Source of the DNA: a virus
DNA length: 64,000 bases
IMG/VR virus record: IMGVR_UViG_3300050016_000100
Coordinates: 1 to 64,000 of that record
Strand: one strand, 5' to 3'
Position numbers and translations under genes: made by a program. The notes beneath the pieces were generated by a model. That model saw nothing but the letters and a program-made list of their open reading frames with translations, ran no database searches and had not been told where the DNA came from. This document shows, one piece after another, positions 11,460-26,022 of the stretch; position 1 is the stretch's first letter, and each line of letters starts with the position of its first letter.

Positions 11460-11469
11460 TGGATTCCTC

Positions 11470-12024
11470 CTAAGCTGTGTTCGCCTTTGCGAACATCTTG
11501 AATGGAACGCCACCGGGCTCCCGGTACTCAGCCCACGGCCAGCGGCGCAGGATTGACTCGTCTTGCGCGCGGAGCAGCCCAGCTCGAGCCGCATCAGGAC
11601 CAAGCGCAAAAATCCAACGATCTTTCACCGATTGCTTTTCGCCTTCGATCCATGATCCGTTGCCGGTCGGCGGCGGCCGGAGCCGATGCCACGTTGGTGC
11701 CCACCACCAATTACACGCGCGATAGAGCGCGCCAGTATGACCTTGGCTCGGATCACTATAGCTGACGATAGTTGTAACTTCTGGGCGAGACTGACGCAGC
11801 GCGCGGACAAACGCCGCCCACTGGCGACTGCCATCGTTCGGTTGCCTGCGCGTAAGGCACCAACGGACGAGCTCAAGCCAATGCTGCGGAAGCCGCCGAG
11901 CAGTTGGCGGTGCTACGATGATCGCCCCAAACTCGTCGTGCCACGCCATGCCGCGATTAATCGGGCCGAGATAATGGTTCTCGGTCAGCAACCCGGCGAC
12001 AGATCGACAGCTAGTCCAAGCCAC
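11470..12024 (-). CDS. Mom-like adenine-modifying GNAT-fold enzyme
   Basis: HYLG, WLELVRWC, IVSYSDPSQGHTGALYRACNW motifs. Confidence 0.8.
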   Translation of the reverse strand: MAWTSCRSVAGLLTENHYLGPINRGMAWHDEFGAIIVAPPTARRLPQHWLELVRWCLTRRQPNDGSRQWAAFVRALRQSRPEVTTIVSYSDPSQGHTGALYRACNWWWAPTWHRLRPPPTGNGSWIEGEKQSVKDRWIFALGPDAARAGLLRAQDESILRRWPWAEYREPGGVPFKMFAKANTA

Positions 12025-12032
12025 AGTCGCTC

Positions 12033-12239
12033 CTATCTCGGCTCGTGCTGTTCGCACCATTTGTCCGCGTGCGTAAGTGGCACGGCGTCATTCCATTTCA
12101 GTCCGCGCCACTTTGCAAAGCAGATTGCCGCGTGTCCGGGCGAGAGTGGAGCAAAATGCCTACACGTCGCACAAGTTGGGGTTAGATAATCGTGCGCCAC
12201 CTCTGCAGCCTCTCGATCTTGCGGTGCGCCGCGCATCAA
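12033..12239 (-). CDS. Small Cys-rich hypothetical protein
   Basis: CATCRHF...C...WC; TAGGAG RBS. Confidence 0.55.
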   Translation of the reverse strand: MMRGAPQDREAAEVAHDYLTPTCATCRHFAPLSPGHAAICFAKWRGLKWNDAVPLTHADKWCEQHEPR

Positions 12240-12245
12240 ATTCTC

Positions 12246-12419
12246 CTATTTCTTTAGCGCGTTCATAACGAAACGGGCCTGCCGTCGATACTCTTTCCTC
12301 TCACGCGCAGCAAAAGCCTCGCGCCAATAGCGGTCGCTAAACTCACGGCGGCCTTTGTCGGTTAGACCGGCGCGGGCGAGTGCCTTAGCTGCAATCTCAG
12401 TTTGGCTTTCCTTACGCAC
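12246..12419 (-). CDS. Small basic hypothetical protein
   Basis: AGGAGG RBS before GTG. Confidence 0.5.
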   Translation of the reverse strand: MRKESQTEIAAKALARAGLTDKGRREFSDRYWREAFAARERKEYRRQARFVMNALKK

Positions 12420-12429
12420 CGATTTCCTC

Positions 12430-12645
12430 CTATATATCGTCGGACTTATCTGGGCAAACGTGAGCCATCGTCTTTTCAAGACGCACAACGCGCTCTTCAA
12501 GTGACGGCTTATCGTAAGAATCATTTTCCGGCACAATCCGGTAGCCGATGTTGGCGGCGATCCGCGTGGCGAACACTTCCTGCGCTTCGCAGCGCAGTTT
12601 AAGAATTTCCGCTAATAGACCATTTTCGCCGTGCGTTAAGATCAC
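12430..12645 (-). CDS. Hypothetical protein
   Basis: AAGGAG RBS; part of short-gene array. Confidence 0.5.
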   Translation of the reverse strand: MILTHGENGLLAEILKLRCEAQEVFATRIAANIGYRIVPENDSYDKPSLEERVVRLEKTMAHVCPDKSDDI

Positions 12646-12656
12646 GAAATTCTCCT

Positions 12657-12857
12657 TTATCTCTTGACCGTATCAGCGGCAATCTTGAGCGCCAACGATA
12701 TTGCGTTCCATTCGGTCTTGTTCATGTACCAAACCGGAGCGTTGCGCGGCAGCTTGCGTTGCCGGTCAAATTCTTTCTTGACCTTGAGATAGGTCGCACG
12801 GCTGAAATTGCGCCGTTCCTTTTTGTAAGCCGCCTTCTGCTTTGCGGTCCACGACAT
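12657..12857 (-). CDS. Small basic hypothetical protein
   Basis: AGGAG RBS; part of short-gene array. Confidence 0.5.
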   Translation of the reverse strand: MSWTAKQKAAYKKERRNFSRATYLKVKKEFDRQRKLPRNAPVWYMNKTEWNAISLALKIAADTVKR

Positions 12858-13140
12858 CAAATTCTCCTGCTCTGTTAGTCACGCTTTCCGAAATGCGTGT
12901 ACATCCAACCGCGCTTAATCCACCTCAACCCTAGAGCATGGATTGCGGCCAATGCCTCCTTTTCCTACTCAGTTAACCGGCGGCGACCATCGGCTCGCAC
13001 CAGGCAGTCGCCTCCCCTACAGCCATTTTAGCGCCACCGATCTTGTGTCTAAAATTGACATGCAAGCAACCGTCCACATGGCAGAAGCATAACGGTTCGG
13101 TGAGTGCGATTGAGTGCGGCTGAGCCGCGCCGGGTTCCTC

Positions 13141-13407
13141 CTAAGATGGGTGGTTGTATTGGAGAACATATTTTTTGGCTTCATCCTTGTTCACGTCCTT
13201 GCCATCCCAATCGAGGTGGATGGTCTCGCAATCAAGTTGGTCAATTAGCTCGCACAGAATGAGCCGCCGATCAGCGTCAGGATGATCCATCGCGCAGGAC
13301 ATCGAGACACCATCCGCAAAAAACCGCTCAAGGATTTTGACGGACTTATCGGTGAAGCCGCCCCATCCCTTGATCGTTCCCCACTTAAGCGTCAGCGACT
13401 CGGCCAT
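13141..13407 (-). CDS. Hypothetical protein
   Basis: TAGGAG RBS; LTLKWGTIKGW N-terminus. Confidence 0.6.
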   Translation of the reverse strand: MAESLTLKWGTIKGWGGFTDKSVKILERFFADGVSMSCAMDHPDADRRLILCELIDQLDCETIHLDWDGKDVNKDEAKKYVLQYNHPS

Positions 13408-13419
13408 CGTGATCAGCTC

Positions 13420-13665
13420 CTACTTTGTTAAGCGATAGCCGTAGCAATCGCGGCCCCAGAACAAGCGCGAGCCACATACGAAAGAGTCTGGTTCCGGCAC
13501 TTCATGGCAATAATAGTATTTGGTGTCGGCCTCATTCGCAGACATGGCATTGCTGATGCGCGTCGAAACTTTCTCACAGCTTTCCAGGCTATCGAAATCC
13601 GAGACGTTGACCCGTCGCTCCATCGGGGTGCCTGCAAGAAACACCACCATGAGAAGATATTTCAC
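13420..13665 (-). CDS. Small secreted Cys-containing protein
   Basis: TAGGAG RBS; hydrophobic N-terminus. Confidence 0.5.
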   Translation of the reverse strand: MKYLLMVVFLAGTPMERRVNVSDFDSLESCEKVSTRISNAMSANEADTKYYYCHEVPEPDSFVCGSRLFWGRDCYGYRLTK

Positions 13666-13673
13666 GGTCACTC

Positions 13674-13898
13674 CTATGCCTCGTTGGCGATTACGGACAA
13701 CTTGCTCGCTGCCGATATGGTGACGTGGACTTCCTCTTTGCGATCTGGAAACGCCAAGCCAATCCACAAGGTCTTGTCGTCCATCATTTCCATGTGGACA
13801 AACGGACCAGCCGCGACAAGTTCATCGAACGCGCCAGCTTCGTCGGGCCGCGTAAAGATTTTGCCATCCACCCACGTCTTGTCGATATGTTTGCCCAA
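13674..13898 (-). CDS. Hypothetical protein
   Basis: AAGGAG RBS. Confidence 0.5.
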   Translation of the reverse strand: MGKHIDKTWVDGKIFTRPDEAGAFDELVAAGPFVHMEMMDDKTLWIGLAFPDRKEEVHVTISAASKLSVIANEA

Positions 13899-13911
13899 GT
13901 CGGCTCCTTTT

Positions 13912-14100
13912 TCACCAACTCATGTGCGGTAAGAAATGTGACGCGGCGATCAGCGCCGCAACGATCAGGCCGCCGATCACGTAGGGCGCAACGCCGGAAG
14001 TTTGACCTGGCGCGTCACTCATGCCAGAAGCGAACAGCCCAAGCAGCCCGAGAGCGAGTGAGAGTAACGCGACGATTCCTGCGATTATAAATGCAACCAT
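13912..14100 (-). CDS. Two-TM small membrane protein
   Basis: Two hydrophobic segments; AGGAG RBS. Confidence 0.6.
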   Translation of the reverse strand: MVAFIIAGIVALLSLALGLLGLFASGMSDAPGQTSGVAPYVIGGLIVAALIAASHFLPHMSW

Positions 14101-14115
14101 GTTTCAGTCTCCTGC

Positions 14116-14445
14116 TCATTCAACGGTTGCGTGAACTTTTGACGGCGCGAGCATCTTCACGAAGATACTGATGTCGGTTTTCTTCTCGATGACCGGGCGG
14201 AACGCTTCTGCCCAAAACCATTTCTCTTGATCCGGTGCGTCTCTGAATGGGACAATCGGATTCACAATCTCGGCCAAGTGAACATGCTGCCGACCATCCT
14301 TGCCGATGCGGGTATCGCGCACGGTGTAAATCAAACCGCGCTTCGGCGTGACGACTTTCCAATAGGCACACCATGCGGCCCAATCGAAGCCGGGGCTACC
14401 TTCGGTTCCGATGCACACTACTTTCTGTCCAACGGTGAAAGCCAC
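14116..14445 (-). CDS. Hypothetical protein, paralogue of 39411..39746
   Basis: Shared G..VVCI, EIVNP and FRPV...TDIS motifs. Confidence 0.65.
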   Translation of the reverse strand: MAFTVGQKVVCIGTEGSPGFDWAAWCAYWKVVTPKRGLIYTVRDTRIGKDGRQHVHLAEIVNPIVPFRDAPDQEKWFWAEAFRPVIEKKTDISIFVKMLAPSKVHATVE

Positions 14446-14454
14446 GAAAATCTC

Positions 14455-15042
14455 CTAATCCAGTAGCCCGCGACTGCGAGCAACATTTTCAAGTTGATAC
14501 AGAAACCACGTCCGCCCAGGTATCGGATCAATGCCGAGCTTTTTCATGGCCGCTCGGCGCGTGCGCCAGTTCTTGTACTTGACGCTTTCCTTGACGCGCA
14601 TCAGGTCACGTAGATCGTTGTCCGAGTATCGTTCCGCAAGCGGCGGCGTGCCCTTGCGGCCGTTGAATATCGACTTGCGGCCCTGCGCCAGTCTGCGGCA
14701 TATCTCGCAGCCGTCGCGCTTCATTGCCGCCCAATTCTTGCGGCTATCCCGGCCGTTGGCATCCACCACCCATCGCCCGCGCTTGTGGATCGCCGTCTTG
14801 GTCGTAACCAGGCTATCGGTCCGGTCGAGCTTGCTGCCCTTGTTCTCGGCCAGCATTGCCGGGACAGCCACCAGCGCCACGCGCGGCGCTCGCATCATCT
14901 TGGCGTAGTCCTCAAGATTGCCGTCTTTGCCGATTACAAACCAATCTGTCGGCTCGAACCGCGCCAGCATCACCCGCTGCTTATCGTCGGGGAACCCCGA
15001 AACCGGGTTTATCAGGGCGATATATTCGGGTTTATCCACCAT
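14455..15042 (-). CDS. Divergent serine-recombinase (resolvase)-fold protein with degenerate catalytic motif
   Basis: Collinear with resolvase pattern (YIALINPVS..Q...L; MRAPRVALV; RG..VV; GRKGTPP; C-terminal HTH-like region); canonical YxRxS absent. Confidence 0.45.
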   Translation of the reverse strand: MVDKPEYIALINPVSGFPDDKQRVMLARFEPTDWFVIGKDGNLEDYAKMMRAPRVALVAVPAMLAENKGSKLDRTDSLVTTKTAIHKRGRWVVDANGRDSRKNWAAMKRDGCEICRRLAQGRKSIFNGRKGTPPLAERYSDNDLRDLMRVKESVKYKNWRTRRAAMKKLGIDPIPGRTWFLYQLENVARSRGLLD

Positions 15043-15051
15043 TTCCCGCAT

Positions 15052-15096
15052 ATCATAAAACAGGGGTGGACAAATAGCAAGGCCCGTGCTTATATT
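15052..15096. promoter_or_regulatory. Overlapping divergent sigma70-type promoters
   Basis: Minus strand TTGCTA-17-TATGAT (15080-15052); plus strand TGGACA-18-TATATT (15067-15096). Confidence 0.6.
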
Positions 15097-15201
15097 CTCC
15101 CCAGGCCCCACGGGTTGCCCATTATTGGGAACAACGGCCAAGCCGACTAGAAGCAAATCCGGTGCATCGTGGGAAAGCCGGGCTTCTAAAGGAAAACGCC
15201 G

Positions 15202-15306
15202 ATGAAACGATGGCTTTACTGGCGCGTCGTATGGCTGAATGACAGAACCAATGGCCGATATTTGCGGCTGCAATCGCGGCTGTGGATTGCTGGTTGGAGC
15301 GATTGA
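15202..15306 (+). CDS. Small Trp/Arg-rich peptide (first gene of plus-strand array)
   Basis: AAGGA RBS; MKRWLYWRVVWL...; below ORF-track cutoff. Confidence 0.4.
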   Translation: MKRWLYWRVVWLNDRTNGRYLRLQSRLWIAGWSD

Positions 15307-15320
15307 AGGAACAGGCCGCC

Positions 15321-15698
15321 ATGAAATTCGCCACGGATGCAGTGCTCGGAACCTCGACAGGCCGCCTTTTGGGCGACATTGGCGGCATCTACAAGGTGCT
15401 TTCCTTCATGATCGGGCGCGCCGCCTATACGCACGATCTAGCATTCTATGGCCGTCAGGCCAGCAAGGCGCTCAAGGCCGCGCTCCCCGATCTGCCGATT
15501 GAGAAAGATGCCGGTCATGTGACCGGCGAGAATTACCGCGATTGCTTGGAAACGTGGGTCAAGCAATTCGGTCCTGAAATCGACCTGCCTGACAGCCTGC
15601 GCGACTGTCTCGCGGACGACAAGAGCGCGATGCAGACGCTTACCGAAATGGTCGATCCGAAAAAGATAATTCCGATCACCGTCGGTCGCGAGGAATAG
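15321..15698 (+). CDS. Conserved phage hypothetical protein
   Basis: TGRLL...GGIY.VL.FM.G...YTH.L pattern; AAGGA RBS. Confidence 0.65.
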   Translation: MKFATDAVLGTSTGRLLGDIGGIYKVLSFMIGRAAYTHDLAFYGRQASKALKAALPDLPIEKDAGHVTGENYRDCLETWVKQFGPEIDLPDSLRDCLADDKSAMQTLTEMVDPKKIIPITVGREE

Positions 15699-15915
15699 GC
15701 CGGACTTCCGGCAACATGCGCCTCGGTGATGCAGGGGCAGAGTAAATCAGATGGTCAATCATCCTAACCGCAGCAAAACCAAACTTTTGAAGTTCAATGT
15801 TCTCAATCGTTATTCTGGCGAAGTTCAATTCACAGCCGAGATTGATTGCGCGGATGATGCCAAGGCTTCGGTCAAACTTGGCTTGGCAGTAAAGTGGGCG
15901 ATTGAAAGCCGGGCC
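15697..15915. repeat. 219-bp inverted repeat, copy 1 (partner 17668..17886)
   Basis: Reverse-complement identity of leader plus 5' part of pentapeptide gene. Confidence 0.95.
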
Positions 15916-16395
15916 GACCTGAGCGGGGCCGACCTGAGCGGGGCCGACCTGAGCGGGGCCGACCTGAGCGGGGCCGACCTGAGCGGGGCCGACCTGAGCG
16001 GGGCCAACCTGAGCCGGGCCAACCTGAGCGGGGCCAACCTGAGCGGGGCCGACCTGAGCGGGGCCAAAGACGCGGATTACGCCATCGCCTGCACGCGCAT
16101 TTTACCTGATGGCGAGCTGATCGGCTGGAAAAAGTGCAAAGAGAGCGTCATTGTCAAACTGCGCATCCCAGAGGCGGCAAAGCGCAGCCATGCGTTCGGT
16201 CGTAAATGCCGCGCTGAATTTGCGGACGTGATCGAAGTCATTGGCGGGGAAATTGGCTACGCGCTACATGACGGAAAGACTGAATACAAACCCGGCCAGC
16301 GCGTGACCCCCGACAAGTGGGACGATAACTGGATTGACGAATGCTCCAATGGCATTCACTTTTACATCACCCGCGCCGAAGCCGAGGCGCATTGA
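15751..16395 (+). CDS. Pentapeptide-repeat protein with DUF5758-like C-terminal domain
   Basis: 10 A(D/N)LS(G/R) repeats; IGWKK, RKCRAE, ECSNGIHF motifs. Confidence 0.85.
   Translation: MVNHPNRSKTKLLKFNVLNRYSGEVQFTAEIDCADDAKASVKLGLAVKWAIESRADLSGADLSGADLSGADLSGADLSGADLSGANLSRANLSGANLSGADLSGAKDADYAIACTRILPDGELIGWKKCKESVIVKLRIPEAAKRSHAFGRKCRAEFADVIEVIGGEIGYALHDGKTEYKPGQRVTPDKWDDNWIDECSNGIHFYITRAEAEAH
15913..16062 (+). repeat. 15-bp tandem repeat x10
   Basis: GCCGACCTGAGCGGG units. Confidence 0.95.
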
Positions 16396-16404
16396 AGGAT
16401 TAGC

Positions 16405-16487
16405 CCGCATCCGGGCGACACCTTCTGGCACCCGATCCATCCATTGAATGTATGGTCACACCATTCTATTTTTGAATTTTCACCCAT
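16405..16487 (-). pseudogene. 5' remnant of Gp37Gp68/DUF5131 radical SAM gene
   Basis: MGENSKIEWCDHTFNGWIGCQKVSPGC, then abrupt junction with the plus-strand array. Confidence 0.8.
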
Positions 16488-16600
16488 CGGTTCTCTCCAG
16501 ATAGGCAACGGCGGCACGAATCAAATCGACGCGATCTTCAAACTGTCCGAGGCCTACATTGCAGCGACTGCATATCAACCCGCGAACTTTGCCAGTACCA
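16480..16600 (-). pseudogene. 3' remnant of endonuclease VII-domain gene
   Basis: TGKVRGLICSRCNVGLGQFED...AVAYL without N-terminal CxxC/DH. Confidence 0.7.
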
Positions 16601-16610
16601 TCTCGCCCAT

Positions 16611-16793
16611 TTATTTCGGCCTCCCACATTCCGGACAGCCGTGGACCCAGACATCGGCGATCTTGCGTGATGACCATCCCTCGCGCTGCGCGGCCGGCCA
16701 GACCTCGGACCACTCGCCGCTCACGCCTTCGAACGTCGTGTCGCAGGAATCGCACTCGATAACAATTTTGTTATATTGCCGGTCCACGCTCAT
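16611..16793 (-). CDS. Small zinc-ribbon protein
   Basis: CDSC...GW...CPEC. Confidence 0.65.
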   Translation of the reverse strand: MSVDRQYNKIVIECDSCDTTFEGVSGEWSEVWPAAQREGWSSRKIADVWVHGCPECGRPK

Positions 16794-17356
16794 TTTGCCT
16801 TCCTCCTGAACGGTCGCTGGCCCTTCCCCGGCAGGCGGTTGGCGCTGCGCAGCGGCCGCGATGTAATCTGCTTTACCTGGGACGGCCTTTTCGGGAATCC
16901 ACTTGCTTTTCGCCGAGCTTGGCCTTTCGCCCTGTTCTTCGCGATCCGCTTGTTCTTCCGCGCCAGCCCGAGATCGCTGTGCTGTCCGTGCTGGCCCCGG
17001 ACGCGGGTCTCGACGTCGTGGTCGGCCTCGGGCAGCCAGAACAGGTGCGCGGGCGAGTTCGCCGGCGGCCTGTAGCCGACGATGATGCCGCCGCGTTTAA
17101 TTTTCTCCCGGTTTACCAGCGCGGGACGGTGATGCAGTTCGGCCTTCTGGTTTCCGAACAGCAACCGCAAAAACATATCGAGCTGCTCGCGCAGAGACGA
17201 TCTTCCCTTCCAGTGTTCGCGATCTACGAATGAACGGAAGACCGAGGCGGCGCGTTCTCCGTTTTCATGCGCGAACGACTTGGCAGCGTCGAACTGCCGC
17301 TCCGCGACATGCACGCGGATCTTGAGCGGAATGTGCGGGCGCGGCAGGCGGCTCAT
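16790..17356 (-). CDS. HNH-like nuclease-family protein
   Basis: LHHRPAL...ANSP.HL.WL...H...T; basic C-terminal tail. Confidence 0.55.
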   Translation of the reverse strand: MSRLPRPHIPLKIRVHVAERQFDAAKSFAHENGERAASVFRSFVDREHWKGRSSLREQLDMFLRLLFGNQKAELHHRPALVNREKIKRGGIIVGYRPPANSPAHLFWLPEADHDVETRVRGQHGQHSDLGLARKNKRIAKNRAKGQARRKASGFPKRPSQVKQITSRPLRSANRLPGKGQRPFRRKAK

Positions 17357-17832
17357 GATTTCCCCCTATGAATCGCGTCGACCATGCTCAGCCGAACGGA
17401 TGGTCCTAGCTTCGGTGTCTTTCGATTTACTTTGCGAGGCCGATAGACAAAAGTTTTCGAGGCATCCGCTGCGTCCTCGGCCTGCACGATCTCGGCCCAC
17501 GCCTTTCCATCGCGCCGGAATAGCGGGAAGTCCGCATGGTCCCCACCGACGATGTAGATCGGATAACCCTTGCTCTTGCCGGATGCGTTTAGGCGAAGGC
17601 CCCATCCGACGCCGGTCGGGTCGATCCGGCTCAGGTTGGCCCCGCTCAGGTCGGCCCCGCTCAGGTAGGCCCGGCTTTCAATCGCCCACTTTACTGCCAA
17701 GCCAAGTTTGACCGAAGCCTTGGCATCATCCGCGCAATCAATCTCGGCTGTGAATTGAACTTCGCCAGAATAACGATTGAGAACATTGAACTTCAAAAGT
17801 TTGGTTTTGCTGCGGTTAGGATGATTGACCAT
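17353..17832 (-). pseudogene. Chimeric ORF: pentapeptide-protein N-terminus fused to internal HerA-like fragment
   Basis: First ~68 aa copy 15751..; then IDPTGVGWGLR...YIVGGDHAD. Confidence 0.8.
17558..17625. repeat. 68-bp direct repeat, copy 1 (partner 21123..21190)
   Basis: Identical ATCGGATAACCC...GGGTCGAT flanking the 3.5-kb small-gene array. Confidence 0.95.
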
Positions 17833-17886
17833 CTGATTTACTCTGCCCCTGCATCACCGAGGCGCATGTTGCCGGAAGTCCGGCCT
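17668..17886. repeat. 219-bp inverted repeat, copy 2
   Basis: Reverse complement of 15697..15915. Confidence 0.95.
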
Positions 17887-18078
17887 CTACTGACTGAAAA
17901 CGCGGGTGGCGATATTTGCGGGGATCGTGAAGGGCCATGGTGCAGCGGAGATAAAAGCACAGATAGCAAAGCTCTCGCCATTTCTGATGCAGACGGGGCG
18001 ATTGTAAAAGTAGCCGGTGCCGACAGCCCAACCAAAAATGTATATCCAAAACATCGTTATTGCTGCTCGATCCGACAC
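17887..18078 (-). CDS. Small membrane protein (array gene)
   Basis: Hydrophobic; preceded by GAAGGATTAGCCCGCC. Confidence 0.55.
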   Translation of the reverse strand: MSDRAAITMFWIYIFGWAVGTGYFYNRPVCIRNGESFAICAFISAAPWPFTIPANIATRVFSQ

Positions 18079-18084
18079 GGCGGG

Positions 18085-18264
18085 CTAATCCTTCAAATTG
18101 CGGATGGTCTGAGCGATGTCGTGGCCGATGGTTGGTTCGCCTAATACTCTGCCGCGCTGATACGCTGTCTCGGCGCATCGTTCCCGCTCTTTTGCCCTAA
18201 CGGCGTCAAAGCGATCACCAACGCGCTCCATCGCTTCTTTCAGAATGTTAGGCGTATGTGTCAT
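18085..18264 (-). CDS. Hypothetical protein, paralogue of 37257..37442
   Basis: AMERVGDRFDAVR..ERERCA shared. Confidence 0.6.
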   Translation of the reverse strand: MTHTPNILKEAMERVGDRFDAVRAKERERCAETAYQRGRVLGEPTIGHDIAQTIRNLKD

Positions 18265-18298
18265 ACATATCCCTTTCGGGCCTCTATATCCAAGTTGA

Positions 18299-18544
18299 TT
18301 ACGCGAGAAGCCCCTTGAGAGCTTCAGCGAATTTTCTCGTTTCTTCGTTATCCAGCTCGCGATGACAAAGTTGCTCGCGCTTGCCGTCGTTTTGCGCGGT
18401 CGGCTCTGTCCGGTAGACGCGGAAGGACGTGCGGCCCATCGCGCAAAGAGTAGTGGAAAACTCAATCTCCACCGATCCCCAACGCATCGGTCCCGGCTCA
18501 CCTTTCCCGGCTTCGGTCCCGCAATAAAGTGAAACGCTTGCCAT
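18299..18544 (-). CDS. Hypothetical protein (duplicated gene B)
   Basis: MASVSLYCGTE...; GAGGA RBS. Confidence 0.55.
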   Translation of the reverse strand: MASVSLYCGTEAGKGEPGPMRWGSVEIEFSTTLCAMGRTSFRVYRTEPTAQNDGKREQLCHRELDNEETRKFAEALKGLLA

Positions 18545-18558
18545 GTGTGGGTAATCCT

Positions 18559-18738
18559 CTAGGTGTGAGCGTGACTTTTCAACCATGCCAAAACTTCGAC
18601 AACGGCGGGGTCTGGTTTGTCGGGCCATAGTACCGGGTCAAAGGCTCCGTAACCGCGAATGACCTGATGCTGCGCCTCATATCGCGAAAGTGTCTCGAAG
18701 CATTCGAGGAACCGGGCAATTTGCGCTGCGGTTGGCAT
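18559..18738 (-). CDS. Hypothetical protein (duplicated gene A)
   Basis: MPTAAQIARF...; AAGGA RBS. Confidence 0.55.
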   Translation of the reverse strand: MPTAAQIARFLECFETLSRYEAQHQVIRGYGAFDPVLWPDKPDPAVVEVLAWLKSHAHT

Positions 18739-18745
18739 GGCGGCC

Positions 18746-18949
18746 CTAATCCTTCAACTGATCGAGTTGTTCTTGCAGGCGATCGCGCTGGGCAAAAGCG
18801 TCACCCAATCCACAGGCATAGGGAACGCCCCAAGGCGTCTCTGTGTTCAGCGGATTCATCTTGAACTGCCGAATATCGCCCTCAAAGACCAGGGTGAAGG
18901 CTTCGGTAAATTCCTTTTTATCGCGCGGATCGAGCGGATGGCTTGGCAT
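18746..18949 (-). CDS. Hypothetical protein (array gene)
   Basis: TAGGAG RBS; MPSHPLDPRDK. Confidence 0.55.
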   Translation of the reverse strand: MPSHPLDPRDKKEFTEAFTLVFEGDIRQFKMNPLNTETPWGVPYACGLGDAFAQRDRLQEQLDQLKD

Positions 18950-18960
18950 CGGGCCTTCTC

Positions 18961-19215
18961 CTACAACGTGACGCCGAGCTTTTTTAGCTCGGCCTGAATG
19001 ATCTTTTTGGCGGCGGCGACGATCAACGCGCCGGTCTTGCAATCGACCACGACCGAAGCATCGTTGTTGTCCACATATCGGTCGCTGGCTAGACCGCCGA
19101 CTAGAAACTCAAGACCGCGATCAGTGTCATGCTTGCGGCAGGCGCGAGCGAGTTTGTTCCACCCGCCGAGAGCATCAACCAAAAATCCAGGCCGATAAGC
19201 TTCGTTCGCTTTCAC
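18961..19215 (-). CDS. Hypothetical protein (array gene)
   Basis: GAGGA RBS; junction motif. Confidence 0.55.
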   Translation of the reverse strand: MKANEAYRPGFLVDALGGWNKLARACRKHDTDRGLEFLVGGLASDRYVDNNDASVVVDCKTGALIVAAAKKIIQAELKKLGVTL

Positions 19216-19221
19216 GGCGGC

Positions 19222-19437
19222 CTAATCCTCTAAAACATGCGCGGCAAAATAGTTGCCAGCCATACAGTCAGCTTGAGACGAATAACCGCTGCGGGTTTTT
19301 CCAGTATGGGAAATGACACGACCACCCGGCATCGGCCAATCTGGATCATAGCTAACGACCGTGCGCGACTTCAATTCGCGAGAGCCATAGCCCTTGAAGC
19401 GGTATGTCTTGCCCACCTGAATGTCGCGCGACTCCAT
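19222..19437 (-). CDS. Hypothetical SH3-like small protein (array gene)
   Basis: DIQVGKTYRFK N-terminus. Confidence 0.5.
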   Translation of the reverse strand: MESRDIQVGKTYRFKGYGSRELKSRTVVSYDPDWPMPGGRVISHTGKTRSGYSSQADCMAGNYFAAHVLED

Positions 19438-19450
19438 TTGCGGGCCCTTT

Positions 19451-19738
19451 CTAACAGGGTTGGCTGACGCGAATTTCGTCAGCGTTGGAGTAGTCGCACA
19501 GGTGCAATTCCCAACTCTCGATAGGCTCCATTAGGGCCGCCATCGAGGCGAGAAACCCACTATCGTTAAAACTGTATTGCTTGTTCTGTTCAGGGTGTGC
19601 CGCCAGCCATTCGTCACGCAGCCGCTCAACGTCAATTTCCGCACGCGCCAGGAATACTCCCTGCACCATAAAGTCGCTGTAGCAGCCCGAAGTCACGGTA
19701 AAGGTCGCGCCCTTTGGGATCGGAACTTGCTTGCTCAT
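19451..19738 (-). CDS. Hypothetical protein (array gene)
   Basis: IPKG.TF.VTSG.YSD pattern. Confidence 0.55.
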   Translation of the reverse strand: MSKQVPIPKGATFTVTSGCYSDFMVQGVFLARAEIDVERLRDEWLAAHPEQNKQYSFNDSGFLASMAALMEPIESWELHLCDYSNADEIRVSQPC

Positions 19739-19745
19739 TTCCGGG

Positions 19746-19931
19746 CTATTTTGACTGATCGAGGCAGAATGTCATAATAATGCGATGCTCATTCCCAACA
19801 TGAAGTTTTTTGCCTTCGGCTATACAGCCGTCCTCAGTACGGAACCCCGGCACTGAACTAATGGCTGCGGCTGGACTAGAATTGTAAAGTCCGCCCTGCG
19901 CGAAAGCGATCACAACTAAAATCCATGTCAT
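19746..19931 (-). CDS. Small secreted Cys-pair protein (array gene)
   Basis: MTWILVVI...F.T...C...C; resembles 13420..13665 type. Confidence 0.55.
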   Translation of the reverse strand: MTWILVVIAFAQGGLYNSSPAAAISSVPGFRTEDGCIAEGKKLHVGNEHRIIMTFCLDQSK

Positions 19932-19946
19932 AGCGGCCTCTCTCCT

Positions 19947-20204
19947 TCAATCGAGGGGGTCTGGAATTAGACCAGTTATTTCGCTGTACGTCGACAGCAT
20001 CATAAGCGGCGGCACTAGAAATATGTCCCACCCGCCATCGTCGCCTCTAAGCATTGCGATAAGACAGAGAAGGCCCCAGATCGGGAACGCTACGATGTCG
20101 AAAACAATCCCGAGCGGCACCCATAACAAGGCCAGCGCCAAGAACGGAAGCGATAAAATGAAAATTGCGGATACTCGGGCGGCGTTTTTAAGTGACCAAT
20201 CCAT
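19947..20204 (-). CDS. Membrane protein (array gene)
   Basis: Multiple hydrophobic segments. Confidence 0.55.
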   Translation of the reverse strand: MDWSLKNAARVSAIFILSLPFLALALLWVPLGIVFDIVAFPIWGLLCLIAMLRGDDGGWDIFLVPPLMMLSTYSEITGLIPDPLD

Positions 20205-20217
20205 CGGGGCTATTCCT

Positions 20218-20424
20218 CTAGGCCGCTACTTGGTTCGGGCAGACAAACTTGCAATCGAAAAACCGCTCGATGTTTGGCCGTTCATAAATCTGCAATTCAG
20301 CGTGGGGAAACACCGGCCCGACCCATCCGCCGCCCGGCGGCGGCCCCTCCTTGCGCCAGCGATACGTGCTCTCCATGACCTTGCGCTCTTGCCGGACCGC
20401 GCCACACTTTTTGCATTTCGTCAC
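20218..20424 (-). CDS. Small zinc-binding protein (array gene)
   Basis: CKKC...C...C. Confidence 0.5.
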   Translation of the reverse strand: MTKCKKCGAVRQERKVMESTYRWRKEGPPPGGGWVGPVFPHAELQIYERPNIERFFDCKFVCPNQVAA

Positions 20425-20429
20425 GGCGG

Positions 20430-20612
20430 CTATCCTGACAATGCCGTGTCGATCTTATCGAGCAGCGGCTTTAGGGTTTGAGAGTTTTCGGAAAGTAGCT
20501 GTTTCTCGACCGCCGCCAACCACGCCCGCGCTTCCACCAACGCCTCTCGGACCTGCGTATAAGCCTCGCAGGGCTCCGCGCCATCTGGCATCATGCAACC
20601 GGGTAACGACAT
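20430..20612 (-). CDS. Hypothetical protein (array gene)
   Basis: GCMMPDGAEPC.AY motif. Confidence 0.55.
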   Translation of the reverse strand: MSLPGCMMPDGAEPCEAYTQVREALVEARAWLAAVEKQLLSENSQTLKPLLDKIDTALSG

Positions 20613-20616
20613 TTCC

Positions 20617-21082
20617 GGCCTCTATATCCAAGTTGATTACGCGAGAAGCCCCTTGAGAGCTTCAGCGAATTTTCTCGTTTCTTCGTTACCCAGCTCGCGA
20701 TGACAAAGTTGCTCGCGCTTGCCGTCGTTTTGCGCGGTCGGCTCTGTCCGGTAGACGCGGAAGGACGTGCGGCCCATCGCGCAAAGAGTAGTGGAAAACT
20801 CAATCTCCACCGATCCCCAACGCATCGGTCCCGGCTCACCTTTCCCGGCTTCGGTCCCGCAATAAAGTGAAACGCTTGCCATGTGTGGGTAATCCTCTAG
20901 GTGTGAGCGTGACTTTTCAACCATGCCAAAACTTCGACAACGGCGGGGTCTGGTTTGTCGGGCCATAGTACCGGGTCAAAGGCTCCGTAACCGCGAATGA
21001 CCTGATGCTGCGCCTCATATCGCGAAAGTGTCTCGAAGCATTCGAGGAACCGGGCAATTTGCGCTGCGGTTGGCATGGCGGC
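20617..21082. repeat. 466-bp direct repeat, copy 2
   Basis: Matches 18279..18744. Confidence 0.95.
20637..20882 (-). CDS. Hypothetical protein (gene B)
   Basis: Duplicate of 18299..18544. Confidence 0.55.
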   Translation of the reverse strand: MASVSLYCGTEAGKGEPGPMRWGSVEIEFSTTLCAMGRTSFRVYRTEPTAQNDGKREQLCHRELGNEETRKFAEALKGLLA

Positions 21083-21331
21083 TTCTTCGCCACAGTAAAA
21101 GCAATGCCTCATTTTCGGTGCCATCGGATAACCCTTGCTCTTGCCGGATGCGTTTAGGCGAAGGCCCCATCCGACGCCGGTCGGGTCGATGTTGCAGACG
21201 CGTTCACCGGCTGCGAGTGCCGGCTCGATGATCTGGCTCTTGGCGACCGATGTCTTGCCGCTTCCGTTCATGCCGAGGATGGCGATGTGCTTCTTCAGCG
21301 CGGACTCCGGAATCAAGTTCTTCGCCATCAT
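20897..21331 (-). pseudogene. HerA/DUF87-like ATPase 5' fragment fused in frame to array gene A
   Basis: HIAILGMNGSGKT Walker A and IDPTG; homology breaks after 68-bp repeat. Confidence 0.8.
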
Positions 21332-21648
21332 GATTCCCCCCCGAACCGCTCGAGCGCCTGCTTCACCGTAGGCCAGCGGCCAATCAGTTCCTCAGCGATG
21401 CCGACGAGCGCCCCGCGGTCGTAGCCCAGCCTCGTTTTCGAACGATGCGCGAACACGATCCTTCGCTCTAGTTCGGCCAATGCGATACTCGGCGCTCCAC
21501 CCAGGCGGCCGCGCAGGTCTGCGGCGATGGATCGGACGATCCGAATCTGACGATAATTGTCCTCGGTGGCGGCTAACCTGCGGAGCGCCTCGATCTGGCG
21601 CTCGACCTCGGCGAGCTTTTCCTCCGTCGTGAATGTGTAAAGGGTCAC
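21328..21648 (-). CDS. Hypothetical protein
   Basis: Coupled ORF; FTTEEKLAEVER.I motif. Confidence 0.65.
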   Translation of the reverse strand: MTLYTFTTEEKLAEVERQIEALRRLAATEDNYRQIRIVRSIAADLRGRLGGAPSIALAELERRIVFAHRSKTRLGYDRGALVGIAEELIGRWPTVKQALERFGGES

Positions 21649-22001
21649 GGGACCAGCTCCGCCGCGGCTTTGATACCTGCATCGGTCAGCTTCCAGACGA
21701 TGGCCGGACTCCCGCTCGGTGCCGGACGGTGATCTTGTGTCGCGAAGACGAGGCCGGCATCGCGGAGTTCGCCACGCCGTTTGCCGGCGCTGGTCTGCTG
21801 GCGTCCTATGGCGTCCCCGAGTTCGAAGTCGGTTAGGCCGGACGGCGCATTGGCAAGCGCGAGAAGTGCCTGCTTGCGGACCGTGCGGCGGTTCGACCGG
21901 TTGCGGCTCGCTGTCTGGTGGCTGGTCTCCGGATCAGTCGTGCGGGCGCCGGGACCAACCGAGAAAAGGTCCGGAGCTAGTTTCTCGTGTGTCCGGCTCA
22001 T
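21645..22001 (-). CDS. Winged-helix DNA-binding protein
   Basis: ARTTDPETS...GLTD.EL...KRRGEL...GLV...VW. Confidence 0.7.
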   Translation of the reverse strand: MSRTHEKLAPDLFSVGPGARTTDPETSHQTASRNRSNRRTVRKQALLALANAPSGLTDFELGDAIGRQQTSAGKRRGELRDAGLVFATQDHRPAPSGSPAIVWKLTDAGIKAAAELVP

Positions 22002-22543
22002 GCCGACCTCCCTGCCTCTTTTTTCAATGTCGCGCGAGTCGTCCCGGTCATCGTCGCGAGTAGGTCGAGGACGTCGCGCTTTGACTTCTCGAAGGGCTCC
22101 TTCGCCATCGATGCCGCGCTCTGCGACTTGGCGGTTCTGACGATAACCTTCTTCCCGCTCAGATGGATTCTAGCGTACTCGTCGACGCTCCGAATGAAGG
22201 TCGCCAGATTCCGCGCGTGCGATGGCGTGTCGCAATCGAAGTCCTTCTCGTCGAACCATCCGGTCTCGATCAGCGCCCACTTCCTTAAGTGCTCCGCAGA
22301 AGGCCATCGCGCCGCGATTGATTCCGGAAGGTTGTGCCATGCGTCGTCGATGGCGGCGAAGTATTGGTTATGACTCGCGCGGGATCGCGCCTCGAGGACG
22401 ACGAGTGGGTAATCCTCATTCTCGTGAAACTGGCGCCGCGCGACCTTTTCATATCGGGTCTCCGGCATCATAACGAGCTTGAGTTCGCCGCTATCCGGGA
22501 GCGCCGCCCATGTCCACCGAAAGACAACCGGGACCATCCTCAT
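21998..22543 (-). CDS. Recombination-associated protein (NinB/Orf-like)
   Basis: RSRASHNQYFA...EHLRK..L...S...M.K..F; next to exonuclease/ERF. Confidence 0.5.
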   Translation of the reverse strand: MRMVPVVFRWTWAALPDSGELKLVMMPETRYEKVARRQFHENEDYPLVVLEARSRASHNQYFAAIDDAWHNLPESIAARWPSAEHLRKWALIETGWFDEKDFDCDTPSHARNLATFIRSVDEYARIHLSGKKVIVRTAKSQSAASMAKEPFEKSKRDVLDLLATMTGTTRATLKKEAGRSA

Positions 22544-23289
22544 CGCGGGATCGCCTCCTTCGCGACGTCGGCCGGTTTGCGCTTCCCGCCGAGCATCGAG
22601 CGGACCTTCTCGACGAGCTGCTTCAGGTCGTAGTCGAAGCGCTCGATCTCGCTCTCGATCTGCTTGATAAAGGCATCGTCGCGCGCGACGGTAAAGACGA
22701 GGGCGCCCGGCATCCCGCGGTAGAAGATCACGAGGTCGACCTCCTCGAGCTCGGCGACGAGCATCGTCCCCTGGACCTGCGCGCGGTGCTCGGGAGGAAT
22801 CCCACCGCGCATGAGCTGCTCGATCATCAGGCGCGGAATCTGCGTCTTGATCTCGAGGCCCTTGGCTCTCTTCGTGAAGTCGTTGACGACGAAGCCGTCC
22901 GGCGACGCTCCGACGATCTGCCCGCGCGGGAGCTTGTTACGAACGAAGCCGACCCGCTCGACCTCGACGCCTCGGGTGAACGCGTAGTGTTCCCGCGCCT
23001 CGGCCTCCATTATCTTGCCGCGCTCCATCGCGGGGCCGGACCAATTCTCGGCCGGCTCGCCGGTCAAGAGTTCGCCCGCGAGGTCGTAGAGGAGTTTGCG
23101 CCGGGTCAGGCTCTCGCCCCCGTCCTTCCCGGACGCCATGATCGTCCCGAAGTTCGAGGCGGTCGGGAGGCCGAGCCGGAGTTTTATCCATTCCTCAGAG
23201 CCTTGTTCGCAATAGAAAATCTCAGGCGAACTCTTCGTAGAGTTCTTTGCGTTTGGCCGCATAGATGAGGCGAGCTTCTTCTCGATCAC
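22540..23289 (-). CDS. YqaJ/lambda-exonuclease family nuclease
   Basis: QGSEEW..LRLG.PTAS, GASPDG, LEIK, QVQG motifs. Confidence 0.9.
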   Translation of the reverse strand: MIEKKLASSMRPNAKNSTKSSPEIFYCEQGSEEWIKLRLGLPTASNFGTIMASGKDGGESLTRRKLLYDLAGELLTGEPAENWSGPAMERGKIMEAEAREHYAFTRGVEVERVGFVRNKLPRGQIVGASPDGFVVNDFTKRAKGLEIKTQIPRLMIEQLMRGGIPPEHRAQVQGTMLVAELEEVDLVIFYRGMPGALVFTVARDDAFIKQIESEIERFDYDLKQLVEKVRSMLGGKRKPADVAKEAIPR

Positions 23290-24188
23290 TTCTTCGCCTC
23301 CGGCGCCTTCGCGCGTGCGGCAGCGTTCGCCTCGTAGCTCCGGATCGCCGCGACCGTCTCATCGAACCGCCCGCGCGGTAGTTTCGCGAGGCCGTCGATC
23401 TCCGGGTGGCCCTTCGGGCGCGTCTTGTTCATGTGGACGACGAGCCGATCCTTCGGGCAGCCGGCAGCGTCGGCGAGCGCGATGATCTGCTCTAGCTCGT
23501 CTTGCAGGAGCGGGTCGCCAAGGACGACCGGACGCCCGCTCTTCTTCCCGTCGTCATCTTCGCCCTTGGTGACGATATTGAGGACCGCGCAAGCGGTGTG
23601 CCGTTTCGCGTAGCTGACGGACGATGCCCATGCCTGGGCGTTGTTCTTGCTTCCGGTCGTATCGGCACCGAGGTCGAAGTAGCAGGATTCGTCGGTGTGG
23701 CCGTGGCCGATCAGAATGGCAGTGACGCGGACGCGACCATCGGGTGCGGTCCCGATCCGATGCCGAAGGCCAAAGCCGTACTTGTGCAGTATCGGCTTGA
23801 TCACCGGCATCATAATTTCCCATTTCGCATACGGGGTGTCCTGCGACACTTCGCCTGTCCGCTTGCCCGTCGCGTCCTTCTCCCGGACAACAATCGCTCC
23901 GCTTTTCGTGACGACCGGGAGCTCCGGTTGCATTTCGATCATCGCGTGATCGAACGCATCGCGCGCGGCGCGGTTAAGTACCCGCTCTTGGAAGTCAAGG
24001 ATCGGACCAAGGGTCGCTGCTGCTGCCGGGTTAACCGCAAGCCGCTCAACCATCGCAAGGAAGTCTCCGCCGAACCGGACCATCGCTATCCGATCAGGTG
24101 GAAGCGTCGCGACCTCCTGCTTAGCGACCGGTGGGCTTTCGAATAACCAGTCCTCGTCCACCTTCTCATTCACCTGCACCTTCGTCAT
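23286..24188 (-). CDS. erf: ERF family single-strand annealing protein
   Basis: YAKWE...PIL.KYG; SKN.AQ..ASSVSYAKRH...L.I...EDDDG. Confidence 0.9.
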   Translation of the reverse strand: MTKVQVNEKVDEDWLFESPPVAKQEVATLPPDRIAMVRFGGDFLAMVERLAVNPAAAATLGPILDFQERVLNRAARDAFDHAMIEMQPELPVVTKSGAIVVREKDATGKRTGEVSQDTPYAKWEIMMPVIKPILHKYGFGLRHRIGTAPDGRVRVTAILIGHGHTDESCYFDLGADTTGSKNNAQAWASSVSYAKRHTACAVLNIVTKGEDDDGKKSGRPVVLGDPLLQDELEQIIALADAAGCPKDRLVVHMNKTRPKGHPEIDGLAKLPRGRFDETVAAIRSYEANAAARAKAPEAKK

Positions 24189-24208
24189 GATATTCTCCCT
24201 GGGTTAAA

Positions 24209-24517: not shown

Positions 24518-24519
24518 CT

Positions 24520-25856: not shown

Positions 25857-26022
25857 CGGTCTCTCCCTTGATGATCTTGATCGCCTTGTTGTAACCCTCG
25901 ATCTCGCCTTCGCCGCGAGCGATCTCAAGCATCCCGGCGAGCAGGTCGATCGCGACGCCCGTCGAGCCGCCGCGTATGTAGTCGATGTTGTCCTTCGCGC
26001 GCTGCTGCGCCCAGTCGCTCAT
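25840..26022 (-). CDS. Hypothetical protein
   Basis: Coupled ORF with AAGGAG RBS. Confidence 0.55.
   Translation of the reverse strand: MSDWAQQRAKDNIDYIRGGSTGVAIDLLAGMLEIARGEGEIEGYNKAIKIIKGETDGRKN

Follow-up and report, generated by a model that had tools for sequence, protein, structure and literature searches.

A proposed hypervariable accessory-gene island in a phage, apparently closer to a shuffling hotspot than to an integron

Two known systems come closest to the locus analyzed here: the start-associated sequences (SAS) found in mycobacteriophages of Cluster K and the PeSL-mediated gene shuffling of T4-type phages. SAS have been described both in these mycobacteriophages (Pope et al. 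2011, PMC3203893) and in Microbacterium phages of Cluster EF (PMC7302621). In the parts of these accounts available to us, they are short asymmetric motifs at the position of the ribosome-binding site, a few nucleotides before the start and in a single orientation; they precede only non-structural genes, of various families, are conserved past the Shine-Dalgarno core, and may contain the upstream stop. In T4-type phages, the available part of the description has PeSLs, repeated regulatory motifs, flanking ORFan genes in hyperplastic regions, and proposes that recombination between copies deletes, inserts and shuffles genes with expression kept, insertions being expected to have a copy of the motif on either side (Arbiol et al. 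2010, PMC2839356). As described there, a PeSL is about 100 bp and combines a promoter with a terminator stem-loop, and the shuffled units are thus transcriptional.

The locus lies in the window, the 64,000-nt stretch analyzed here, which comprises bases 1–64,000 of a 73,144-nt virus record (a phage contig of about 73 kb). The first 100 nt of the record are found again 237 nt from its end. Genes were called with a crude script of our own. A preliminary description of the window had reported a resolvase-fold gene that shares divergent promoters with a plus-strand array (15202, 15321, 15751), a minus-strand array of about 14 tiny genes, and a common junction motif in which repeats end. These observations were confirmed overall, and both arrays are present. 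With a probability of roughly one half, we read the region as a hypervariable accessory-gene island, not an integron, whose junctions act both as translational stop-restart signals and as short patches of homology. Its genes are the following.

11259–14445, minus: type-2 array, 3' of the resolvase-fold gene, with TAGGAG-type junctions
11259–11459, minus: superinfection-immunity gene within the type-2 array
14455–15051, minus: resolvase-fold gene (AlphaFold2 and Foldseek), 198 aa; alternative start at 15042 (195 aa)
15052–15096: overlapping back-to-back sigma-70-like promoters (sequence match), conserved in eight loci
15202–15306, plus: 34-aa leader ORF, its TGA stop inside the first type-1 junction; a similar short ORF and junction occur in locus L006
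15321–15698, plus: DUF7736 gene (profile match)
15751–16395, plus: pentapeptide-repeat and DUF5758 gene (profile match)
16362–16517, minus: DUF5131 remnant (profile positions 1–25 of 243 only), abutting an orphan junction
16790–17356, minus: 188-aa backbone gene at the right edge of the island, common to loci L002 and L042
17353–17832, minus: chimeric ORF, a pentapeptide N-terminus fused to ATPase residues about 47–102
17887–20612, minus: type-1 array of 12 small genes with no Pfam matches, a GC content of about 54% and a TAG stop in most
20897–21331, minus: chimeric ORF, residues 1–69 of a HerA/FtsK-like ATPase, 16 further residues and copy B of a 59-aa gene

The 14–15 small ORFs at 17353–21331 (minus) gave no match in a Pfam scan, and the GC content of the array (54%) compares with about 61–63% in the backbone. 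Four genes of the region are remnants: the ATPase twice, DUF5131 and the pentapeptide gene.

The overlapping divergent promoters reported earlier correspond to two sigma-70-like sites, TGGACA-18-TATATT on the plus strand (15067–15096, 10/12 matches) and TTGCTA-17-TATGAT on the minus strand (15080–15052, 9/12 matches), in a region of about 55 nt that is conserved in the eight loci. From the promoter position, the predicted mRNA of the resolvase-fold gene has almost no leader. The two kinds of tiny-gene arrays would start from these back-to-back promoters.

The resolvase-fold ORF matched neither Pfam nor PHROG. Its AlphaFold2 model, based on 18 homologues, has a mean pLDDT of 87.3, and the best Foldseek matches in the PDB are serine recombinases: Sin (2r0q, E = 4.5e-4), 3pkz and gamma-delta resolvase (2gm4/1zr2). 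Among the 16 top matches in BFVD, 11 are named integrase, resolvase, invertase or recombinase and five are unnamed. The resolvase fold suggested earlier is thus borne out. The matches to Sin and gamma-delta resolvase are full-length, and the predicted architecture is that of a small serine recombinase, with a catalytic-domain fold, a long helix and C-terminal helices; fold and domain order are as in gamma-delta, Sin and Hin. In contrast to these enzymes, the protein shows no profile-level sequence similarity and lacks the catalytic serine. The position after strand 1 that should hold it is occupied by S in 5, A in 6, P in 6 and R in 1 of the 18 close members, and by a conserved N-P in the wider family, while S103, S127 and Y159 are invariant in the close members. 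Four distant members carry a C-terminal T5orf172/MUG113 domain, and two relatives, P0002 and P0003, are 85–86% identical to the protein.

The locus resembles an integron in having a conserved recombinase-fold gene beside a divergent promoter and promoterless small genes in one orientation. It differs in that arrays flank the gene on both sides, the catalytic position holds no nucleophile, and there is no attI. Neither an attC-like palindrome nor a tyrosine recombinase was found, as had been noted before, and the intergenic gaps at junctions are just 5–34 nt. The fold, and the fact that the gene and motif-bearing arrays strictly occur together, would suit an integron-like site-specific system in which the resolvase-fold protein cuts and joins at the junction motif and moves cassettes. 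We consider such a system highly improbable: no Ser or Thr is conserved at the nucleophile site, all 30 family members fail to match Pfam Resolvase, and hhalign against E. coli PinE gave a probability of 0.2. Moreover, the crossover sites of serine recombinases carry a dyad, and the junction motif is asymmetric and has none. Site-specific, integron-like recombination is therefore unsupported, and the part of recombinase that the preliminary description offered this protein is, judging by its sequence, an unlikely one. The loss of the nucleophile favors a shuffling hotspot over an integron. In transposons, tnpR adjoins res and the resolvase doubles as repressor; the gene here likewise lies beside a divergent promoter region. 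By this analogy, and by it only, the protein is probably a regulator: a serine-recombinase fold without its nucleophile that may now bind DNA at the adjacent promoters.

The junctions fall at these positions.

15307–15320, plus: type-1 junction AGGAACAGGCCGCC, preceding the ATG at 15321
16392–16408, plus: orphan junction TTGAAGGATTAGCCCGC, followed by no gene
18079–18092, 18739–18753, 19216–19229, 19932–19946 and 20425–20436, minus: strict junctions in the type-1 array

The strict motif, AGGA-N3-8-CCGC[CT]-[AG]TG, has six matches in 73 kb, every one within 15307–20436, and is absent from the other roughly 95 called starts. Its core, AGGAWTAG(N)SCCSC, has four matches against 0.02 expected, and none of 100 shuffles reached at least four; the motif is far more conserved than ordinary ribosome-binding-site spacers. 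The fit is not universal: of 13 listed junctions, six fit strictly and about four loosely, and three (18264, 18949, 19437) do not fit. A junction brings the upstream stop, TAG in most cases, together with a Shine-Dalgarno core and a G+C-rich spacer, all within some 20 nt of the start that follows; neither promoters nor terminators were found there. The sequence AGGATTAGCCCGC, already reported behind two unrelated genes, lies at 16396–16408 (plus) and 18080–18092 (minus) and provides a TGA stop in one frame and a TAG in the other, within a 17-nt junction that is identical behind both. The sequence CTGGATTAG at the end of the resolvase-fold gene encodes its C-terminal L-L-D-stop and continues into the next junction. 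TAG ends 52 of 78 array genes and 51 of 227 others (p = 4e-12), which points to a role of the stop itself. Predicted accessibility of the start region shows no difference between genes at junctions and the rest (Mann-Whitney p = 0.31), which leaves masking of the start by the G+C-rich spacer unsupported.

These junctions share with SAS all the properties listed above, and the co-directional ones (GGAATAGGAGCCG) resemble the SAS consensus in the published text available to us (GGGATAGGAGCCC). That consensus shows no enrichment in the window (13 matches at up to three mismatches, 17.9 expected, none at junctions), and no extended inverted repeat (ESAS) was seen. Unlike SAS, the main motif of the window has the Shine-Dalgarno sequence before TAG, with a GCCGCC spacer. 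It co-occurs with one conserved protein and a strong TAG bias, neither of which appears in the portion of the SAS description available to us. The host phylum also differs, one relative being a prophage of Pseudolabrys (Alphaproteobacteria). As with PeSLs, as far as their description was available, a repeated motif lies beside variable genes and shuffling is proposed; in contrast to those elements, the junctions lie within operons and would act on translation. A SAS-type translational stop-restart signal, at which ribosomes would terminate and then restart, accounts for the motif at least equally well.

It might be no more than such a signal, or a factor-binding site, with recombination showing no preference for junctions and repeats ending there because only gene-preserving rearrangements survive. 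The correspondence with published SAS in position, single orientation, restriction to non-structural genes, internal stop and conservation past the core, as far as the available text goes, is in line with this, as is the TAG bias; mosaic boundaries in phages also lie at gene ends in general. We nevertheless regard this explanation as somewhat unlikely. The variants of the junction are phage-specific and homogenized within each genome, which is unexpected if a common host ribosome reads the signal, and the identical 17-nt junction follows two unrelated genes whose stops are in different frames.

We compared the window with eight independent loci from other samples that carry the resolvase-fold gene (L001–L008, 45–63% protein identity; only eight exist) and with four related loci that lack it (L009, L010, L042, L043). 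In all eight, the gene is flanked by non-homologous small-gene arrays joined in the same style, so that its homologues are indeed linked to variable arrays. This co-occurrence in other phages is new here. By all-against-all blastp, the flanking genes of the loci are non-homologous save for two weak pairs, although their junctions are alike: SD-TAG-GCC in divergent arrays and TAGGAGCC in co-directional ones. SD-TAG-GCC junctions precede 12 of 27 genes in divergent arrays and 1 of 120 in gene-less loci (Fisher p = 1.5e-9); TAGGAG-type junctions precede 21 of 28 called genes in co-directional arrays and 2 of 120 in gene-less loci (p = 5e-17, run with 21/29). L042 is syntenic with the window (homologue of 27446, ATPase, 188-aa gene, homologue of 10723), lacks the island and has such junctions at 0 of 39 genes. 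DNA similarity between loci is confined to the promoter and the resolvase-fold gene, and ends 3–15 nt past the stop codon in all 13 pairs that reach the 3' end, including pairs at 82–83% nucleotide identity. No cassette is shared in a different context among nine loci, and exchange between phages is thus not directly seen. In the window and in L002 the island belongs to an early operon, and in L003 and L004 it lies beside putative tail/lysis genes, a difference in context that would also fit an integron-like system; a large ORF next to it in the latter two is an integrase by guess only.

The rearrangements within the island involve these repeats.

18274–18744, minus: duplication D2, copy A, two genes (59 aa and 81 aa)
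20612–21082, minus: D2, copy B, two mismatches; the ATPase N-terminus is joined in frame to its first gene
15697–15976, plus: inverted-repeat arm P, 280 nt, comprising the 5' part of the pentapeptide gene and the 54 nt before it
17607–17886, minus: arm P', 97% complementary to P
17558–17625: 68-nt perfect direct repeat, copy 1, within the ATPase coding sequence
21123–21190: copy 2 of the same repeat, within coding sequence

The 68-nt repeat is an addition to the preliminary description. Three of six repeat ends fall in junctions, which cover 7% of the array (binomial p = 0.006): both D2 ends, in the GCCGCC box and the TAGAGGCC box, and the start of the inverted copy, at TAG|GCCGGA, all as described before. 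The other three fall within coding sequence, as recombination indifferent to junctions would allow: the 68-nt repeat accounts for two of them and the inner end of the inverted repeat is the third. Rearrangement is thus not confined to the motif and, given the four remnant genes as well, illegitimate recombination acts away from it too. Yet D2 ends in junctions although ends that look non-viable are tolerated here, as the disrupted genes nearby show, and in L002 a 26-nt perfect direct repeat (the last codons of the resolvase-fold gene plus TAGGAG) flanks a 1,124-nt insert; both speak against junctions that are signals alone. Inserts between short direct repeats would also fit integron-like movement, but repeats of 68, 26 and 17 nt, varied in sequence and length, are expected of homology-driven events and not of one site.

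We return to the hotspot reading, in which the recurring 15–30-nt junction would serve as a homology patch for ordinary recombination, so that whole genes could be duplicated, inserted or swapped with expression intact. The agent could be host RecA or the ERF, YqaJ exonuclease and NinB-like proteins of the phage, encoded 2–3 kb away. Exchange at short homologies, by general recombination or of the ERF type as first proposed, would fit the data, and the earlier interpretation is in this sense partly supported. Selection for viable recombinants would also leave ends at gene boundaries.

Finally, the duplications, like the block enclosed by the 68-nt repeats, could be assembly artefacts, with strain variants or a separate circle threaded into the contig. 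In the one run containing the sequence, independent Logan contigs are interrupted at each repeat, with none bridging the 68-nt repeat, and an inversion between the 280-nt arms would share k-mers. Depth in the array (18.6–20.3) is below that of the flanks (22.8–27), so some genomes may lack the block, or it could be a separate 3.6-kb circle. We judge an artefact improbable, because the depths of the repeats are close to the sums of their contexts (35.1 against 18.6 + 20.3; 42.7 against 22.8 + 18.6), as fits two real copies per repeat over unique parts at 18.6–27. The flanks are not doubled in depth, which places both copies in one population of genomes. The D2 copies differ at two positions and the inverted arms at about 3%, and the evidence from the motif, the fold and the cross-locus comparison is independent of the assembly.

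The small array genes of the window are joined by a distinctive class of sequence. Junctions, the short stop/Shine-Dalgarno/spacer sequences between these genes, read in their strict form AGGA-N3-8-CCGC[CT]-[AG]TG. This pattern has six matches in the whole genome, all within 15307–20436, and its core, AGGAWTAG(N)SCCSC, occurs four times against 0.02 expected, a count that none of 100 shuffles reached. The spacer is absent from all of the other ~95 called starts (gene starts come largely from a simple caller written for this analysis and are approximate), and the junction motif put forward in the preliminary description thus holds. As a family, the 13 array junctions grade from strict (six) through loose (about four) to non-fitting (three), and the intergenic gaps in the arrays measure 5–34 nt. 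The 17-nt sequence TTGAAGGATTAGCCCGC is identical after two unrelated genes; because its stop is read as TGA in one frame and as TAG in the other, it is conserved as nucleotides and not as protein. We consider it highly probable (about 0.9) that the junctions are a real and selected class.

Two explanations at the level of translation were rejected. For a masked start, the unpaired probability of positions −15 to +6 was alike across gene classes (0.50 for junction genes, n = 13; 0.45 for other small genes, n = 39; 0.48 for longer genes, n = 60; p = 0.31). For TAG read-through fusing neighboring genes, the TAG-to-start gaps, worked by hand, were divisible by three in two of nine cases. No extra motif pairing with the 3′ end of 16S rRNA was seen by eye.

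The main new result comes from comparing loci that encode the resolvase-fold protein (ORF 14455–15051, minus strand, 198 aa). Eight independent loci were available, comprising three viral contigs, one Pseudolabrys prophage and four metagenome contigs, with 45–63% identity to the window protein. In an all-against-all blastp comparison, the resolvase-fold gene was the sole gene shared, and the flanking small genes were unrelated save for two weak pairs; the expectation of the preliminary description that homologs flank variable small-gene arrays is thus borne out at all eight loci. DNA similarity between the loci is limited to the promoter and the gene, and ends 3–15 nt past the stop codon in each of the 13 pairs whose similarity extends to the 3′ end, including pairs of 82–83% identity. 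The unrelated small genes are nonetheless joined by similar junctions. Divergent arrays carry (T)TGAAGGA(A/T)TAG(G)CC(G)CC-ATG or near variants, and a regular expression for this class matched 12 of 27 array genes versus 1 of 120 genes in a comparison set drawn from four related loci without the resolvase-fold gene (p = 1.5e-9). Co-directional arrays, which follow the gene on the strand that encodes it, carry (A/T)TAGGAGC(C/G)...ATG at 21 of 28 called genes versus 2 of the 120. Array genes also favor the TAG stop (52/78 versus 51/227 other genes, p = 4e-12). The strict window core was found again on the divergent strand in three loci (L001, L004 and L006), and the junctions of each phage are homogenized to its own local variant.

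A related locus without the gene, L042, is syntenic with the window over the whole early operon. It lacks the island (the resolvase-fold gene and arrays), with ~280 nt at the place where 5.5 kb lie in the window, and none of its 39 genes has such a junction. Taken together, the locus comparisons indicate that the junction grammar moves with the gene as one module. The window and L002 have this module in the early operon, and in L003 and L004 it is next to tail/lysis genes. Exact-motif scans of IMG/VR returned 12 and 17 single matches, approximately chance level by a rough estimate. The sole related-looking matches were L020 (the prophage already represented by L004) and L023, a 76% complete contig with four junction-like sites and no resolvase-fold gene. 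With matches near chance and two related-looking ones, the exact motif is not widespread.

The resolvase-fold protein had no match in Pfam or PHROG. Its family is rare, with 24 proteins in a collection clustered at 90% and 45 representatives in a library clustered at 50%, and tblastn against 50,697 deposited phage genomes recovered zero members. The nearest homologs, P0002 and P0003, show 85–86% identity. The structure model (pLDDT 87) contains the resolvase catalytic-domain fold, an E-helix and a C-terminal helical domain. Serine recombinases rank first in both structure libraries searched, and for Sin and gamma-delta resolvase the match covers the full length of the model. In the Foldseek PDB search, ranks 1–12 were all Sin or gamma-delta/Hin resolvase entries, and lower ranks still included serine recombinases (3guv, 4bqq and 9teq). 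Probabilities were 0.90–1.0, with target-normalized TM scores of 0.38–0.41 for full-length chains and 0.54–0.64 for catalytic-domain chains. In BFVD, 11 of the top 16 matches are named serine recombinase, resolvase, invertase or integrase. The resolvase fold assigned in the preliminary description was therefore correct.

The Pfam Resolvase profile (PF00239) matched none of 18 members at E up to 10 and none of 30 at E up to 0.1, and hhalign against E. coli PinE found no similarity (probability 0.2). In resolvases, strand 1 is followed by a loop that bears the nucleophilic serine. The loop following the strand at residues 9–14 reads N-P-V-S/A/P-G, with N-P conserved across the family; 5 of 18 members have Ser at the residue next but one after N-P, and the loop after strand 1 shows no conserved Ser/Thr column among 30 wider members, the nucleophile position being mapped via secondary structure. 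Given the missing Pfam Resolvase and PinE matches and the serine held by a minority of members, we regard the modeled protein as a putative degenerate resolvase, quite probably non-catalytic. Four distant family members (P0094, P0103, P0105 and P0118) have a T5orf172/MUG113 (GIY-YIG-like) domain at the C-terminus.

All eight loci share a conserved block of about 55 nt upstream of the resolvase-fold gene. This block is predicted from sequence to contain two overlapping consensus promoters facing outward. A distance of 9 nt separates the end of the −10 element in the gene's own promoter from the ATG, so the gene's mRNA would be near leaderless. A role for the protein as transcriptional regulator of the island is possible, at somewhat less than even odds.

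The region around the arrays has been rearranged (REARRANGEMENTS in the window). Homologs of a HerA/FtsK-like P-loop ATPase (more than 50) are 543–627 aa long, and the gene is intact in L042 (602 aa). Full-length homologs P0031, P0047 and P0064 are encoded on contigs of 56–72 kb. The window ATPase is split into two fragments, residues 1–69 (21328–21122) and ~47–102 (17625–17443). A perfect 68-nt direct repeat (17558–17625 and 21123–21190), missed by the preliminary description, encloses 3,497 nt with the main array. Two further gene remnants lie nearby:

16362–16755, minus strand: DUF5131 N-terminal stub and endonuclease VII ORF, overlap 16480-17

Of the 243 profile positions of DUF5131, 25 remain, the truncation falling exactly at the end of an orphan junction (16392–16408), and the endonuclease VII ORF matches profile positions 20–81 of 82. 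Separately, in P0084, a 218-aa database protein, a similar ATPase N-terminus is joined to a DUF5131 domain, a hint that the ATPase gene has been rearranged in other ways in relatives.

The two repeats of the preliminary description, with ends in the GCC motif, were confirmed as described. The first (D2, 18274–18744 and 20612–21082) duplicates two whole genes; it begins within GCCGCC, 6 nt ahead of the first start, and extends to TAGAGGCC in front of the next gene. The second is a 280-nt inverted pentapeptide copy (15697–15976 and 17607–17886), which starts directly after a TAG stop in both places. Three of the six ends of the D2, inverted and 68-nt repeats fall in junctions, and junctions account for 7% of the array (p = 0.006, uncorrected for survivorship); the other three lie inside coding sequence. 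In L002, a perfect 26-nt direct repeat (4992–5017 and 6116–6141), made of the final 23 nt of that locus's resolvase-fold gene followed by GAG, brackets inserted genes, with its copies 1,124 nt apart. The chances that junctions act as recombination patches appear evenly balanced. Tandem duplication does not fit as the origin of the block between the 68-nt repeats; Campbell-type circle insertion or template switching would fit.

The sequence occurs in one sequencing run, which is probably its source. Its Logan contigs break at every repeat, and their depths (D2, 35.1; inverted arm, 42.7; array, 18.6–20.3; flanks, 22.8–27) fit two copies in each genome, as opposed to two strains. The same depths equally allow an integrated block or a 3.6-kb circle, and the short k-mers agree equally well with an inversion isomer between the 280-nt arms. 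A minority of genomes may be without the block, as the array depth below that of the flanks allows. A depth-0 bin at 20682–21015 is a product of placing a shared contig on copy A. Within 13000–23000 of the window, one contig of run X1 diverges at 21282 inside the ATPase stub. A Logan joint at 16389/22745, with 18 nt on each side, was set aside, as were loose ends at 16372, 17364, 21282 and 22762: either the joined stretches are too short, or other variants gave rise to these contigs.

We compared the island with three known systems. The integron-like reading of the preliminary description extends to the general layout, in which predicted, conserved consensus promoters beside the resolvase-fold gene might drive promoterless genes, and other integron features are absent: no IntI-type tyrosine recombinase was found, the ORF folding like a serine recombinase and no integrase occurring among the ORFs scanned between positions 10.7 and 33 kb, and no attC imperfect palindromes were detected, the gaps between genes being 5–34 nt and the pentapeptide copies the only inverted repeats.

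A closer likeness is to the start-associated sequences (SAS) of Cluster K mycobacteriophages. These are 13 bp long (GGGATAGGAGCCC), lie 3–9 nt before the starts of non-structural genes of different families, have one orientation and sometimes include the upstream stop (PMC3203893). A motif analogous to SAS is mentioned for Cluster EF Microbacterium phages (PMC7302621). The window junctions are likewise asymmetric, a few nucleotides from starts, in one orientation and at non-structural genes only. The consensus itself is not enriched: GGGATAGGAGCCC had two window matches at up to two mismatches, neither at a junction, and 13 versus 17.9 expected at up to three. The co-directional junctions nevertheless strongly resemble the consensus, and junctions in related loci approach it (GGAATAGGAGCCG), a likeness outside this mismatch count. 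The principal motif of the window is a variant in rearranged form. Extended SAS, with 17-bp inverted repeats upstream, are absent, as the 5–34-nt gaps are too small and the repeat search found none. The junctions therefore behave like SAS but are a distinct motif.

The promoter-stem-loop cassettes (PeSLs) of T4-type phages are repeated promoter-terminator units where shuffling of ORFans and circle formation take place (PMC2839356). They share the logic of the junctions and are a different kind of element; a PeSL combines an early promoter and a terminator stem-loop (~100 bp), and no match to a promoter or a terminator fell at the junctions. The D2 ends and the L002 repeat fit the PeSL pattern of motif copies marking insertion/deletion ends.

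Within a limited literature search, the SAS-type junctions described to date are from actinobacteriophages. New here are start-associated junctions in phages of Alphaproteobacteria, their tie to a single conserved gene, their marked TAG-stop bias and their coincidence with duplication and insertion ends. It is conceivable, and in our estimate unlikely, that a catalytically dead resolvase-fold protein recognizes the junctions as DNA or RNA, the two together making a self-contained portable platform that holds, expresses and exchanges tiny accessory genes, many perhaps counter-defense. Such a platform would be a phage analog of the integron using short homology in place of attC, and the protein would be the first candidate reader of SAS-type motifs. 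Genes of the aca type serve as anchors for anti-CRISPR loci; the resolvase-fold gene and junction grammar could similarly guide metagenome searches for phage accessory genes that evolve fast.

The window covers bases 1–64000 of a 73,144-nt record. The first 100 nt of this record recur 237 nt before its end, so the phage genome is complete or nearly complete. The island lies in the leftward early region, among the following genes:

11259–11459, minus strand: superinfection-immunity gene (Pfam Imm_superinfect, E 7e-19), within the co-directional array downstream of the island's resolvase-fold gene
21998–22543, minus strand: NinB-like protein, upstream of the island
22540–23289, minus strand: YqaJ exonuclease, upstream of the island
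23286–24188, minus strand: ERF recombinase, upstream of the island
24209–24517: HIRAN-domain gene, early/middle region
26019–26597: HNH endonuclease gene, early/middle region
30397–31005: MT-A70 methyltransferase gene, early/middle region

Rfam at gathering threshold gave zero matches in 11000–27500, PADLOC gave none for 10 proteins of the region, and a tRNA search of the region found none. Megablast and blastn matches among 50,697 phage records were restricted to the pentapeptide repeats. The superinfection-immunity gene, the pentapeptide-repeat protein, the low G+C content and the turnover suggest that the arrays hold accessory host-interaction genes. The pentapeptide repeats at 15905–16070 are encoded by 11 tandem 15-nt units; the inverted copy has three, so the unit number differs between copies. 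The 12-mer GTCACGCTTTCC(G), which may be a regulatory site, has four genome copies, at 12878 and 60223 on the plus strand and at 34545 and 36398 on the minus strand.
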